The notes under the pieces were generated by a model that worked only from the letters and a program-made list of their open reading frames with translations, was not told where the DNA came from and did not search any database. This document shows, piece after piece, positions 17,607-21,871 of a DNA stretch of 64,000 nt. The DNA is from Anaerolineae bacterium (GTDB lineage: Bacteria; Chloroflexota; Anaerolineae; UBA1429): the NCBI GenBank assembly GCA_963675785.1, contig OY776562.1:1568001-1632000 (forward strand). Reading direction: 5' to 3'. The position numbers were made by a program, and so were the translations under genes. Positions within the stretch are counted from its first letter, which is position 1, and every line of letters begins with the position of its first letter.

Positions 17607-18581
17607 TCAGGTCACTTCGAGATAAGCTGGCATGATGGGAAGACCGATGGGCCGCGCACCTTTGGCTACATTACGCACGTACTCTGCCGCCGGAGTGCAA
17701 TCAGCGTCGAGTAGAGCTATCATGCAGGCATCCCAGGCGGTCTGCTCGGTTCTGCCATTGTTACAGAACCAGTTTTGCACGGCGCGGGAACCGGGTACTA
17801 AAGGAAGCGCGAGTTCTTTCGAGCCCTCGGGCGCCAGCCAGGCTACCATAGACGCCGCAGCCTCGGCGTCAGCAGCCAAGAACAGAATCACTTGCGGGCT
17901 TGTTCCATGGCGAGGATGCAAATTGTAGCGCGCATAGCCGACGATTTGACCAGCGCGTTCGAACACGCTGGCTCGTATATTACTCGTGTGGCTCATCCAG
18001 CCCAAAAGGGAATCACCGGGATCCACGGCCAGGTCCACATCAACGAACCAAGTACGCCAGAGTTTGGCCAAAGCTGGCGCATCAGCGGCCACAACGGGAT
18101 GCGTCTCTAAGGTTATGGGCGCAGGAACGACGGATACTGTTACATTGCATGCGCCAAACATGCGCGGCTGATAGCCAAACCGCGGATAATAGCTGGGATG
18201 GCCCCAAAGAAAAGAGAGGGCATAACCACGCTCGACGGCTCGACGATGCCCCTCGCGCATCAAAAGGGTGCCCACACCCTGCCGCTGCCAATCGGCAGCA
18301 ACTACCAAAGGGGCCAACAGCACAGCAGGTACAACCTCCCCGCCGATGTACATGGTCAAGGGATTAAAGAGGACCTGGCCGATAACGCGATCTTGCACAC
18401 AGGCCGCCAGCGCCAGCTCAGGGTCGAACTGTGGATTATGTCGAGCCATATCTACTAGCGCCACCTCGGGAACAAAATCGTATGCGGGTGGCATGGCCGT
18501 GCCTGGCCCAAAAGCCCGCGCGTTGATCTCGGCAATGCGACTATAATCAGCGGGTGTCTCGCTGCGAACTAGAATGTTCAT
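17607..18581 (-). CDS. GNAT N-acetyltransferase (YhbS-like, with C-terminal extension)
   Basis: LAPLVV..WQRQGVGTLL, GHPSYYPRFGY; GAGGAG RBS before ATG 18581. Confidence 0.85.
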   Translation of the reverse strand: MNILVRSETPADYSRIAEINARAFGPGTAMPPAYDFVPEVALVDMARHNPQFDPELALAACVQDRVIGQVLFNPLTMYIGGEVVPAVLLAPLVVAADWQRQGVGTLLMREGHRRAVERGYALSFLWGHPSYYPRFGYQPRMFGACNVTVSVVPAPITLETHPVVAADAPALAKLWRTWFVDVDLAVDPGDSLLGWMSHTSNIRASVFERAGQIVGYARYNLHPRHGTSPQVILFLAADAEAAASMVAWLAPEGSKELALPLVPGSRAVQNWFCNNGRTEQTAWDACMIALLDADCTPAAEYVRNVAKGARPIGLPIMPAYLEVT

Positions 18582-18713
18582 GCGACTCCTCGTGTATTGT
18601 TTCGATGCCTTCAGTATAGTCCTCTGCCGCACCTGTACCACTCCGCAAACGCTGTATGGTCAGGCGCTGCAACAGTTTTTGTTCATGTGGTGAACGCTGA
18701 ATAGACTCTCGTT

Positions 18714-19352
18714 TCATGATACCCTCCCTTTACTACCATGCTTGGCAGTCAGACGCTGACGCAAACGTTTGCGCGCTGAATAGATACGGCAATAAGCGGC
18801 GTTGGGGTTGAGTAATTGCAGCTCTCGGGCAATTTGCACCCCAGAATAGCCCATGACCACACGCATATACAGAGCGCGGCGATCCAAAGCTGGTAGCTCT
18901 GCCCAGGCCTCGTGCAGGGCATCCTCCAGCTCGGAAGAATCCGCCTCGGGCACCTCAATGAGTGCCTCCAGGGCATGGTATGACAGGCGTTGAGCGTCAC
19001 CCTCACCCACATAGGCATCGAGGGCCAACACAGTAGGATCGACAGGCTCTTCGGGTGGCTGCCATAAACGATAGGGCTTGCGACGGATGATGCGCCGAGC
19101 ACCGCCCCACAGCACGCTACGCCAGCGCTCCCACAGCGGCTCGAGGTCATCGCAATTGCCGCCCTCTTGCAGCCAACGGCGCACGGTATCATGAAACTCG
19201 ATATAGAGATCTTGCAAGAGGTCATCGCTGGTGTAAAGGCCGCCATCGCCGCGATTGAGGCGGTGCATGGTGCGCCCACAACAGCGCAGGGCCGTGGCGC
19301 GGGCCTGCGGCCAGAGCTGATTGACGATTCGGGTCAGAGCATTGGTAGGCAT
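18714..19352 (-). CDS. sigma-70 family (ECF-like) RNA polymerase sigma factor
   Basis: Region-2-like DDLLQDLY and region-4 HTH LPALDRRALYMR..GYSGVQIAREL..RIYSARKRLR; AAAGGAG RBS. Confidence 0.72.
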   Translation of the reverse strand: MPTNALTRIVNQLWPQARATALRCCGRTMHRLNRGDGGLYTSDDLLQDLYIEFHDTVRRWLQEGGNCDDLEPLWERWRSVLWGGARRIIRRKPYRLWQPPEEPVDPTVLALDAYVGEGDAQRLSYHALEALIEVPEADSSELEDALHEAWAELPALDRRALYMRVVMGYSGVQIARELQLLNPNAAYCRIYSARKRLRQRLTAKHGSKGRVS

Positions 19353-19414
19353 GTTGCTGCTCCTTTCGTATCGGCCTCACGGCCGATCTTCATGCAACAC
19401 GTGCAAACACAAAC

Positions 19415-20887
19415 TTAGTATTGTGCTGACAGGGGGTCGGAGACCTCGATCACGGCGGATTCGGTGGGCAAAGACACCGCACGAGCCTCCAACACGGCAC
19501 ACAAAGCTGCCGAAATGAGCAGGTCATCGTGAATGGTGGGATCAACCACACCCCAGCGCATGCGCTTGAGGGCGCCGTCATAGACCTCGTAGGTGGCGGC
19601 GCGCACCTGCTGCCAAAAGGCGGCATACTGCTCGCTGCCGTCATCGGCGTGATCGAGAAAACGGCCCGACGAGCAGATACCGAGAAATCCCCAACCGAGG
19701 TCGCTCTTGACGCCAGCGTTGAAAGTGACGGGATTGATCCGTTGTCCCAGATGACGCTGCAGCGAAGAAGCCAAGCCAGCGCCTAAACCGGTGGCATCCA
19801 CCACCAAGGTTTGGGCCTGCCAGCAGTCGGCAAGGGCCAACAGCACGCCCAACAGCTCATCCTGGTAGCGGCCCGTCCACAAGTGGCGATCCATCACCAG
19901 ATAGCGGTTCATGCCTTGCTCAGTCTGGTCCAGTTCAATAACGGTGACGGCGGTGCTATCTTTGCGAGGCTGAGCCTCGCGCAGGGCCGCATCGCGCAAG
20001 GATTCCTCGGCGCCGCCCGCTACGTCGATAAGCAGAGCGTAACACCGCCCTTCGGTGGGGCCGCGTTGACGCAGGTGGCTGCCTTGCATCAAGGCACGCA
20101 CATCCACGGAAAACATACCAGCGGCCTCGTCGATCTCTTCCAGGCAGTATTGGGTCTTGATGAGGGGATGCTGACGGCCCAAGCGCTCGATCTCGCCGCG
20201 CACAAAGGTGCCATAGGCGGGCACGCACTCTGCAACCTGCTGCCAAGGCACACGAAAGACGCGCAGTTGGCCATCGCGCAGCTCTTGCGCCTCCAAAACG
20301 CGCATGGTGCGGGCCAGCAGAGTGTTACTCGTCCAGGCGGTGCCCCAGAGCACGGTGGTGGCATTGGTGCTGGCCGCCATGGGCCGAAAGTCGCGGTTCC
20401 AGATGGTCTCATCGATGTTCTGGGCCTCGTCGGCCTCTAGCAACAGATCGGCGGTGGCGCCCACCACGTTGGCCTGCAGTCCTGCCGAATAAAAGGAGGC
20501 CCTGGCCAGGCCTACACGCAGCATACGCCCCTGTTCGCGCACAGGTTTGAGGCCGGGGAGGCGGCTGCCCTGCAGCAGGGATTCCAAGCGCATGAGGCTG
20601 GTGTAGGCCTGGGGCTGAAAGGTGGGCGCGGCTTTGACAATAGTGCCGCCCCGTCGATAGGCGCGAGCCAGCAGAAAAGCCTCTACATGGGAGGCGGTCT
20701 CGTTTTTGCCGGCCTGGCGTGACATCATCACAGCAAAGGTGCGACCTTGACCAGTAAGCGCCGAGTGGACGATGGCAGCCGCTGGTTCGACTTGATAAGG
20801 GCGCAAGGTGCGGCCCAGCACTATACGAGAAAAAAGCATCGGGCTGGCTAACACGCGGCGCAAGGCGTTATGGCTAATGTCGGGCAC
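19415..20887 (-). CDS. phage terminase large subunit-like protein (ATPase plus RNase H-like nuclease)
   Basis: Adenine-binding LRPYQ, Walker A MSRQAGKNE, Walker B LLEADEAQ, coupling motif WGTA, nuclease acids IDVA, VDATGLG, HDDLLIS. Confidence 0.85.
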   Translation of the reverse strand: MPDISHNALRRVLASPMLFSRIVLGRTLRPYQVEPAAAIVHSALTGQGRTFAVMMSRQAGKNETASHVEAFLLARAYRRGGTIVKAAPTFQPQAYTSLMRLESLLQGSRLPGLKPVREQGRMLRVGLARASFYSAGLQANVVGATADLLLEADEAQNIDETIWNRDFRPMAASTNATTVLWGTAWTSNTLLARTMRVLEAQELRDGQLRVFRVPWQQVAECVPAYGTFVRGEIERLGRQHPLIKTQYCLEEIDEAAGMFSVDVRALMQGSHLRQRGPTEGRCYALLIDVAGGAEESLRDAALREAQPRKDSTAVTVIELDQTEQGMNRYLVMDRHLWTGRYQDELLGVLLALADCWQAQTLVVDATGLGAGLASSLQRHLGQRINPVTFNAGVKSDLGWGFLGICSSGRFLDHADDGSEQYAAFWQQVRAATYEVYDGALKRMRWGVVDPTIHDDLLISAALCAVLEARAVSLPTESAVIEVSDPLSAQY

Positions 20888-21266
20888 GGCCAGCCTCCTC
20901 GTCCAATTCTTTCAACACTTGGTCGAACAAGGTATCGAGTCCGGCATCGGTGGGTTGTAGTTGCTTGCGAGCTCGCAACAGTTGGATCACGCGTGCGGTC
21001 GAATCGTTCCAGGCACGCAGATACTGCGCCGGGCTGGTTGAACGAGAATCTCCCGCGCGGCGCAGTTCGGCGATCCAGTCGCAGAAATAACGGCGAGCCT
21101 GGAGTAGATCGACCAACTCTTGCTCGATGACGCAGCTGTCATCGTCCTCAGCCAAGGCACGTGCGAGCGCCTCCGTGCCCTCCGAGGCGCGCATCAACGC
21201 GGCGAGGGCATCATGTTGAGCTGCATGGCGTCCTTGCTGCCCGGCATTCCGAGTCTGTTTGGACAT
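20874..21266 (-). CDS. small helical protein, positional candidate for terminase small subunit
   Basis: 130 aa; overlaps the TerL start; AAGGAGG RBS. Function inferred from position only. Confidence 0.55.
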   Translation of the reverse strand: MSKQTRNAGQQGRHAAQHDALAALMRASEGTEALARALAEDDDSCVIEQELVDLLQARRYFCDWIAELRRAGDSRSTSPAQYLRAWNDSTARVIQLLRARKQLQPTDAGLDTLFDQVLKELDEEAGRARH

Positions 21267-21284
21267 GCATCCTCCTTCATGAAT

Positions 21285-21333
21285 TAGAACATTTGTTCTA
21301 GTCCATAATATGTCCAAACCAGGGGAATGTCAA
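21285..21333 (-). promoter_or_regulatory. sigma70 promoter with LexA (SOS/Cheo-type) box
   Basis: Minus strand TTGACA-N17-TATTAT, then TAGAAC-AAAT-GTTCTA 4 nt later (AGAAC-N4-GTTCT). Confidence 0.8.
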
Positions 21334-21383: not shown

Positions 21384-21412
21384 TTGACAGACAGTTACGC
21401 ATCGTTTATGCT
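21384..21412 (+). promoter_or_regulatory. sigma70 promoter for the response regulator
   Basis: TTGACA-N17-TATGCT. Confidence 0.7.
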
Positions 21413-21460: not shown

Positions 21461-21871
21461 ATGGCTTACAAACCCTCAATCCTGATCGCAGAAGATGATG
21501 AGCTGGTGCTCGCACTTTTTCAGCGTCTATTGCGCAGCAAAGGCTGGCAGGTCACAGCCGTAAACAATGGCTATGATGCCCTGCGCGAGTGGAAGAACCG
21601 CGATGGCTATGATTTGACCATTCTCGATGTGCGCATGCCCAAAATGGATGGATACACCGCCTACCAGCAAATGCGTAAGATCAAGCCAAATTCGCGATTT
21701 GTGTTTGTGAGTGGCTATTCAAACGAGACCGTGGAATTTCAGGTGCATGATGTGGACGGCGTGCCCTATCTGCAAAAGCCGTTCGACTCGCTCGAGTTCC
21801 TGAGGGTCGTCGGGGAAATCATGGCAGAACTCGAGCTGGCCGCTTGCACAAACCAGACTCTGGCAGACTAG
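21461..21871 (+). CDS. single-domain response regulator (receiver)
   Basis: LIAEDD, ILDVRMPKMDG, VSGY, LQKPF. Confidence 0.93.
   Translation: MAYKPSILIAEDDELVLALFQRLLRSKGWQVTAVNNGYDALREWKNRDGYDLTILDVRMPKMDGYTAYQQMRKIKPNSRFVFVSGYSNETVEFQVHDVDGVPYLQKPFDSLEFLRVVGEIMAELELAACTNQTLAD

Follow-up and report, generated by a model that had tools for sequence, protein, structure and literature searches.

A terminase and sigma factor operon with a predicted LexA operator, and an unlinked capsid gene cluster, in a family of Anaerolineae

On the minus strand of a 64-kb stretch of an Anaerolineae genome (phylum Chloroflexota; assembly GCA_963675785.1, contig OY776562.1), three closely packed genes at 18714-21333 follow a promoter and a palindrome. 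This stretch, analysed as a whole, is called the window below; it starts at genome position 1568001, and positions are those of the window unless marked as genome positions. The first-pass annotation, made from the sequence without database searches, had described a minus-strand operon of a small helical open reading frame (ORF), an intact gene resembling large terminases (TerL) and an ECF-like (extracytoplasmic function) sigma factor, and direct reading of the strand confirmed this layout. The -35 element TTGACA (21333-21328) and the -10 element TATTAT (21310-21305) are separated by 17 nucleotides (nt), the promoter spanning 21305..21333. Four nt past the -10 element, over the expected start site, lies a LexA-type SOS box, the palindrome TAGAACAAATGTTCTA (21285..21300, no strand). 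An AGGAGG-type ribosome-binding site (RBS) then leads to the ATG at 21266 of the first gene (20874..21266), coding for a small helical protein of 130 amino acids (aa), a possible small terminase or regulator. Its end is overlapped by 14 nt by the start (GTG at 20887) of an intact 490-aa ORF for a TerL-like ATPase-nuclease (19415..20887). A 62-nt spacer, which contains the stem-loop ATCGGCC-GTGA-GGCCGAT without a T run (19370..19387), separates it from the third gene (ATG at 19352; 18714..19352), whose predicted product is a divergent ECF-type sigma factor of 212 aa with sigma2-like and sigma4 regions. We refer to the three genes as the triad.

The promoter TTGACA-N17-TATTAT agrees with the consensus at 11 of 12 positions. 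The palindrome TAGAAC-N4-GTTCTA has a single match in the window even when one mismatch is allowed (0.05 expected from shuffles), and both elements stand at 21333-21285 as first described, with the palindrome over the expected +1. GAAC-N4-GTTC is the LexA box of Gram-positives and Dehalococcoides. In the 3.22-Mb genome of the window this plain form is not enriched genome-wide (39 found versus 48 expected) and was for that reason rejected as an SOS marker; SOS genes are marked only by the extended form, in which A/T flanks the box and the spacer is AT-rich. Such AGAAC-N4-GTTCT-like boxes with AT-rich spacers adjoin lexA, uvrA and ssb, as well as a pair of AlkZ-like glycosylase and ogt genes and genes for radical-SAM/HhH, RNase_H_2 and DUF3800 proteins. 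Because the extended box is shared with lexA, uvrA, ssb and other repair genes, the operon is a member of the predicted LexA regulon, in which we infer that LexA itself binds the box. The arrangement is conserved at all 16 readable loci of the family, which read TTGAc/t, about 17 nt, TAnnAT, 3-6 nt, (t)aGAAC-N4-GTTC(ta) and then the small ORF, in genomes whose RpoB is 67-73% identical to that of the window's genome.

Judged by its sequence, the 490-aa protein is a divergent large terminase, an intact ATPase-nuclease. It matches five PHROG families, four of which are annotated as large terminase (best phrog_38, E 5.8e-9). Across all 21 aligned relatives R57-N62 (RQAGKN), D153/E154 of LLExDEAQ, G182/T183/W185/T186 of WGTAWT, D288, D364 and H453-D454-D455 are invariant, and we take these positions to be the Walker A and Walker B motifs, the coupling motif and the acidic residues of the nuclease. 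The description of the gene as an intact TerL is thus borne out by both the PHROG matches and the invariant motifs. The Pfam domain Terminase_6C is matched weakly and below threshold in the window's copy (E 1e-3, 19.5 bits versus a cut-off of 22.6) and above the cut-off in two orthologues (32.9 and 30.9 bits). TerL is present in a single copy in the window's genome.

The 212-aa protein is likewise, on sequence grounds, a divergent ECF-type sigma factor. It passes the Pfam model Sigma70_r4_2 (27.5 bits versus a cut-off of 25.7) and aligns over the whole TIGR02937 sigma70-ECF model (residues 5-201), the latter below threshold (30.3 versus 42.9 bits, E 2.8e-7), in keeping with its first designation as ECF-like. 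The sigma factor has no Pfam region-2 match; a conserved DDFxQDLFLEFW segment is found where region 2 is expected and resembles regions 2.1-2.2.

The 130-aa protein has no matches in Pfam, PHROG, NCBIfam or PADLOC. Its conserved core reads FLRAWNDSTARVIQLLRARR. The AlphaFold2 (AF2) model consists of four helices with a moderate predicted local distance difference test score (pLDDT) of 69.5, and a Foldseek search with this model gave nothing below E 1 (best E 1.3). The position of the gene, directly before TerL, suggests a small-terminase role. Predicting the complex of TerL with this protein gave a score of 0.44, compared with 0.00 for the best control, with runs that agree in at least 54% of contacts and a partner pLDDT of at least 57. 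This is weak support: of 157 solved complexes 116 attain the mark used for such predictions, as do 2 of 215 mismatched pairs; at scores of 0.60 or less, only 18 of the 157 attain it, together with both of the passing mismatches. Seven of ten aligned small proteins, and two further orthologues, carry an N-terminal C-x4-C-x10-C-x2-H segment (MPKNPxKRRCxVxGCRAWAxxGxxxCxxH) that looks like a zinc ribbon; the window's copy lacks the segment. In a relative (G006) the small ORF and TerL are separated by an opposite-strand ORF of some 314 aa (L038:10792-11736, plus strand). Comparable stretches occur in G009, G005 and G003, and G021 has a gap of similar kind, about 0.9 kb long; the inserted ORF has no NCBIfam or PADLOC matches.

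A Pfam scan of the 52 ORFs of the window returned ordinary cellular genes (solute-binding proteins, glycoside hydrolases, regulators and others), in keeping with the earlier view of the flanks as host DNA, and no portal, capsid, tail, integrase or phage repressor. The statement that phage structural genes are missing therefore holds for the 64 kb; it fails for the genome, since such genes lie 27-40 kb past the left edge of the window, and the term 'orphan' for TerL proved wrong at genome scale. In two genomes of other families (G036 and G034) and at a second TerL copy in G004, a portal gene directly follows TerL, and searching the window's genome (G000) with the neighbours of these TerL genes revealed a structural cluster. 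In genome positions, it consists of a portal gene (1528356-1529501; phrog_10963, E 3.6e-29), a protease-capsid fusion (to 1531371; phrog_4523, 3.5e-45; NF045541, 5.7e-47; Pfam Phage_capsid_4, 2.3e-30), a 90-aa ORF after the capsid gene without family match, an SU10-like adaptor (1537917-1538546; SU10_adaptor, 36.4 bits versus a cut-off of 27), an ORF of about 70 aa that is conserved in relatives and, at 1538754-1540697, a gene for a 647-aa protein (p647), which the fold search describes as a beta-propeller joined to a gp27-like hub. The AF2 model of p647 has a pLDDT of 82 and a predicted TM-score (pTM) of 0.81; about 330 of its residues match the baseplate hubs gp27, Mu gp44 and VgrG and the PVC/AFP spikes (Foldseek E 1e-16 to 1e-12), and more weakly, with larger root-mean-square deviation, sialidase-type propellers are matched as well. 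The cluster ends 27 kb left of the window and lies 46-61 kb from the operon. The unlinked portal and capsid loci that the first-pass annotation had thought worth looking for are thus present, and they co-occur with the triad. The order portal, capsid, adaptor, small ORF and hub is mostly contiguous in relatives, with nothing else conserved on either flank. Within 450 nt upstream of the portal cluster an exact LexA box was found in 5 of 17 cases (0.08 expected), and a sixth cluster has a box with one mismatch, seen by eye. Searches of the window's genome with Phage_portal, Phage_capsid, TerL_ATPase and Terminase_6N detected no other head genes, and PADLOC assigned none of the triad or structural proteins to a defence family.

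Several further observations concern the structural locus and candidate parts of it. The 640-nt leader of the portal gene in the window's genome contains six short perfect GC-rich hairpins (G000:C1 1528018-1528312) with stems of 8-11 bp whose arms are 2-3 nt apart; in several, GTT/AAC stands at the tip of the stem. Hairpin-rich leaders also precede the portal in G007 and G013, and an Rfam scan of such a leader gave nothing near gathering scores. The stretch at G000:C1 1531728-1537646 is an insertion with LmuB (the SMC-like protein of Lamassu; PADLOC E 1e-37) and neighbours of 415 and 107 aa, and the insertion of a TPR gene in this genome produced a second copy of the first ~70 bp of the adaptor gene together with its RBS. 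The genome also holds a complete extracellular contractile injection system (eCIS) locus at G000:C1 ~1249000-1272000 with AAA ATPase, eCIS_core, Pvc16_N, sheath, three gp19-type tube proteins, CIS_tube, a VgrG-like hub, gp25, Baseplate_J and P2_I. The phage-sheath match of the genome, considered as a tail for the particle system, belongs to this locus, which has its own hub, and was rejected.

To follow the system through the family, we used a sample of 24 genomes, in which all TerL-bearing members come from different genera. TerL is present in 17 of the 24 (54-66% identical) and in 5 of 16 genomes from other families of the class, and the genes flanking the TerL loci of relatives are cellular and non-syntenic. 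Portal genes were counted in 18 and capsid genes in 19 of the family genomes; all three genes occur together in 16, none of them in four, and a partial set in four, two of these genome assemblies being 81% and 92% complete. The structural cluster, found in 18-19 of the 24, is always unlinked from the triad; where TerL and portal share a contig, they are 10 kb (G008), 55 kb (G020), 135 kb (G019) and 144 kb (G014) apart. The genes have been inherited vertically. Pairwise identities in 14 genomes correlate between TerL and RpoB with a Mantel r of 0.79 (p 0.0002), between portal and RpoB with 0.76, between capsid and RpoB with 0.65, and between TerL and portal with 0.73. RpoB was taken as the species marker after UvrA had been dropped owing to two paralogues. 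In the window's genome these lie at G000:C1 642726-645587 and 2432717-2435569; the UvrA behind a LexA-like box belongs to a subgroup present in only some family genomes (70-72% identity), and the other is the widespread form (57-61%). None of the 16 family TerL genes has an internal stop. The ratio of nonsynonymous to synonymous substitutions (dN/dS, NG86 method) is 0.14-0.27 in the 15 closest pairs, with a median of 0.30 over 120 pairs; dS is 0.7-1.6 in the closest pairs, near saturation, so that these values are rough. Both checks proposed at the outset, of TerL against species divergence and of dN/dS, thus came out in the same sense, TerL tracking RpoB and dN/dS lying well below 1. The genes are conserved, occur together, and are kept under purifying selection.

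Beyond the family, a scan that took one genome for each of 185,579 species yielded 199 relatives, and the best 80 of them were analysed. All 80 are Chloroflexota, mostly labelled Anaerolineae or Anaerolineales. TerL is followed by the sigma gene in 24 of these. The small ORF is present at 23 and the box at 22 of them, and at the two loci that lack the box less than 500 bp of sequence is available upstream. The expectation that the triad and its upstream LexA box recur in other genera is thereby confirmed, both here and at the 16 family loci. TerL is followed by portal in 19 of the 80 and by neither gene in 37, some of them short contigs. We built a tree of 77 TerL sequences, namely the window's and those of 76 loci with at least 80% coverage, four loci having been dropped for low coverage. 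All 25 TerL-sigma rows fall into one clade of 29 (SH-aLRT support 98), and all 19 TerL-portal rows are outside it. The other four members of the clade are two short contigs and two second copies in island-like contexts. These second copies, L040 (G008:C2:8900-28899) and L186, lack the sigma gene and have as neighbours genes for replication-initiator-like, CII-like, 1599-aa HerA/TrwB-like ATPase, PAPS-reductase and DUF4007 proteins; they may be a mobile offshoot. Among viruses, IMG/VR contains 219 contigs with TerL relatives, the best 80 being 40-55% identical to the window's TerL. In none of these 80 is TerL followed by the sigma gene; in 65 the portal gene comes next and the capsid gene mostly follows it, 8 contigs are too short to judge, and 7 have neither. 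The triad is thus not confined to complete prophages; such confinement was one of the outcomes that the first-pass annotation had named as fatal to its proposal. The second TerL copy of G004 (G004:C264) belongs to a full prophage. This has an integrase, excisionases and an endopeptidase, and about 12 structural ORFs stand between its capsid and lysin genes. Taken together, the triad looks like the product of one rearrangement at the base of the host clade that was subsequently inherited.

On balance, and with some reservation, we favour the view that one Anaerolineae family possesses a phage-derived, vertically inherited, LexA-repressed particle system and that the operon supplies its regulatory and packaging half. 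In the undamaged cell, LexA bound to the palindrome over the start site would silence the strong sigma-70 promoter. Once DNA damage had removed LexA, the small helical protein (possibly the small terminase), the TerL motor-nuclease and the ECF-type sigma factor would be made. The probable task of the sigma factor is to activate the unlinked structural cluster by guiding RNA polymerase there; in some genera the cluster would also answer to LexA directly, through its own box. Capsids with a very short tail would then assemble, and TerL would fill the procapsids with DNA. With the two loci 46-61 kb apart (10-144 kb in relatives) and without integrase or replication gene, the particles would be unable to propagate the element, and because the element could neither fit into them nor mobilise itself, their cargo would be host DNA, as in a gene transfer agent (GTA) or the defective phages of the PBSX type. 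We infer LexA binding and induction, the sigma regulon, particle formation, the packaging of DNA, and release and uptake.

The features of a GTA can be compared with what the genomes contain. The structural and packaging genes are phage-derived and vertically inherited under selection, and the dispersal of the genes, together with the lack of integrase or replication genes at the loci, agrees with an element that does not transmit itself. Prophage hallmarks, and those of phage-inducible chromosomal islands (PICI), namely integrase, excisionase and repressor, were found neither among the 52 ORFs of the window nor among 22 ORFs around the structural cluster. Adjoining portal and capsid genes, by which a TerL is otherwise recognised, are 46-61 kb away in the window's genome; TerL stands beside the portal in the outgroup and in viral relatives of the same TerL family. 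More tentatively, we suggest as a possibility, rather less than probable, that the system is a previously unrecognised, independently domesticated GTA, the first in Chloroflexota, whose motor and dedicated ECF sigma factor are wired directly to LexA. If so, DNA-damaged cells would become donors of chromosomal DNA packed into capsids, by way of a minimal particle, nearly without a tail, whose genes form a separate locus.

A number of observations weigh against a LexA-repressed particle system. The link between triad and structural cluster rests on co-occurrence and gene content, because no LexA box is present upstream of the portal gene of the window's genome and no sigma-type promoter motif common to the 17 portal upstream regions could be defined, a Gibbs-type search recovering only the RBS. 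The shared promoter motif that the first-pass annotation had envisaged between the loci was accordingly not found in these regions; a GrTAC-like element 20-55 nt before some portal starts and ECF-style AAC-N-CGT patterns before the portal were both rejected as inconsistent. Compared with the related prophage, far fewer structural genes are present, and infectious or transducing particles may not form: tail tube and tape measure genes were not found, nor were lysis genes, with lysin and holin looked for at the two loci only. In the window's genome the cluster is interrupted between capsid and adaptor by the Lamassu-like island and the TPR gene. The proteins of the triad themselves leave room for doubt, as the Pfam match of the window's TerL is below the cut-off, the TerL alignment, used as a profile against PDB sequences, matched no solved structure, and the 130-aa protein resembles no terminase family or known fold. 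An opposite-strand ORF that splits the small ORF from TerL in five genera complicates the picture of a single operon. The system is dispensable, four family genomes lacking all three of TerL, portal and capsid, the divergence of the sigma factor is only weakly correlated with that of RpoB (r 0.41, p 0.055), and the roughness of the dN/dS values has to be kept in mind.

The nearest rival is a particle that kills or lyses, like the phage-like bacteriocins of the PBSX type, with SOS-induced lysis and a hub and propeller protein that damages neighbouring cells. The regulatory logic, SOS control with a sigma-like activator, is that of PBSX, and p647 does join a sialidase-like propeller to a gp27/VgrG-like hub. 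However, the cluster is not accompanied by a sheath, a tube or any other killing machinery, the sheath of this genome being part of the separate, complete eCIS, and a packaging motor kept under selection argues that the filling of heads with DNA matters. We regard a killing device as unlikely. The co-occurrence data bear on a second alternative, to which we give still less credence, in which TerL and the sigma factor act without capsids, as an SOS-induced DNA-cutting or translocating enzyme and a damage-response regulator, and the portal cluster is an unrelated relic. Such a role would suit two unlinked loci without a common promoter motif, as well as G007, where the structural cluster is present and TerL was not found. 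However, it would leave unexplained why 16 of 24 family genomes have TerL, portal and capsid and four have none, why TerL and portal diverge in parallel (r 0.73), why the same TerL is directly followed by this portal family in the outgroup and in viruses, and why 5 of 17 portal clusters have their own LexA box against an expected 0.08.

Slightly less credible again is a satellite-like or phage-interference system with its own capsids and adaptor, which would borrow helper tails or divert packaging according to the logic of capsid-forming PICI, chromosomally fixed. Head, adaptor and hub genes without tube or tape measure would fit such a system, and the packaging operons of Staphylococcus aureus pathogenicity islands (SaPI) are LexA-controlled. 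Nevertheless, neither the window nor the surroundings of the structural cluster contain an integrase, excisionase, primase/replicase or att-like arrangement, the two loci stand apart and have come down by vertical descent, PADLOC gave no match, and searches with the four Pfam families named above found no resident helper head genes. Of the three functions offered in the first-pass annotation, the one resembling a split GTA fits best, and phage interference and DNA cutting alone fit worse. That the loci are what is left of a single ancient prophage, inert and decaying where it stands, as the reduced structural set, the insertions in the G000 cluster and complete loss in some genera might imply, is highly improbable given intact ORFs, dN/dS of ~0.14-0.27 in the closest pairs across genera with RpoB only ~70% identical, invariant catalytic motifs, and a promoter and operator conserved at 16 of 16 loci.

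The particle system that we favour can be set beside several known ones. SaPI and other PICI have a LexA-repressed packaging operon and are mobile islands with integrase, replicon and terS only. The operon described here resembles them in placing packaging functions under predicted LexA repression, and differs in that TerL is present and the system is split, non-mobile and inherited by descent. The temperate phages of Anaerolineae (the G004:C264 prophage and IMG/VR contigs) have homologous TerL (40-55% identical), portal, protease-capsid fusion and adaptor. In these phages, however, the portal follows TerL, there is no sigma gene, TerL belongs to another clade, and integrase, excisionase, about 12 structural genes and an endopeptidase are present. 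To our knowledge, only a handful of independent domestications of phages into GTAs or defective particle systems are known, none of them in Chloroflexota, and a literature search, largely of titles and the openings of abstracts, found no description of such a system in Anaerolineae or Chloroflexota.

The GTAs of Rhodobacter capsulatus (RcGTA) and Caulobacter are similar to the Anaerolineae system in having chromosomal phage head and packaging genes that are vertically inherited, host-controlled, distributed over several loci and without integrase. RcGTA, according to PMC9638019, is encoded at several loci, has a sigma-like activator of the structural loci (GafA) and requires LexA; for the Anaerolineae, a comparable activator and LexA link are predicted from the genes. 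Unlike in RcGTA and Caulobacter GTA, the phylum is different, the TerL, portal and capsid lineages are unrelated, the packaging operon has a direct LexA box and a true ECF-type sigma factor (both predicted), the terminase is apart from portal and capsid, the tail is minimal (adaptor and hub), and lysis genes were not recognised at either locus. PBSX of Bacillus, according to PMC4243946, is SOS-induced, packages ~13 kb of random host DNA and uses the sigma-like factor Xpf for late genes; SOS control, packaging of host DNA and a sigma-like factor are predicted here as well. PBSX nevertheless forms one uninterrupted element that encodes a complete contractile tail and an Xre repressor, whereas the Anaerolineae loci are split, have no linked tube or sheath and would be controlled by LexA directly. 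What is new, then, is the phylum, the direct LexA operator on a terminase operon, an ECF sigma gene where the portal gene would otherwise follow TerL, and the placing of packaging and structural genes at separate loci, with the function of the whole predicted. As such it offers a model for the takeover of viral late genes by a host, through a direct LexA operator, an ECF sigma factor in the portal's place behind TerL and relocated structural genes. Anaerolineae are abundant in digesters, sediments and the subsurface and hard to manipulate; DNA packaging triggered by the SOS response would bear on gene exchange among them and could supply a natural delivery tool.

The surroundings of the operon in the window were also inspected. 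Divergent from it, on the plus strand, a single-domain response regulator is encoded at 21461..21871 (Pfam Response_reg, E 1e-23) behind its own near-consensus promoter, TTGACA-N17-TATGCT (21384-21412). A gene for a response regulator is likewise encoded on the strand opposite to the operon, at most about 1.1 kb upstream of the box, at 6 of the 24 further TerL-sigma loci (at four of them within 400 nt) and at none of 56 other TerL loci. The response regulator is thus a recurrent neighbour of the operon and possibly a further input to its control. On the other side, a doubtful 56-aa ORF on the minus strand (18547..18717) overlaps the sigma stop codon (ATGA) and has no homologue at any of the related loci examined; neither this ORF, considered as an anti-sigma partner, nor the GNAT gene downstream of sigma is conserved at related loci, and both were rejected as parts of the system. 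Farther along, at 41353-63232, eight paralogous genes for family-5 solute-binding proteins (559-715 aa), all on the plus strand, sit amid heparinase-like and other polysaccharide-utilisation genes.

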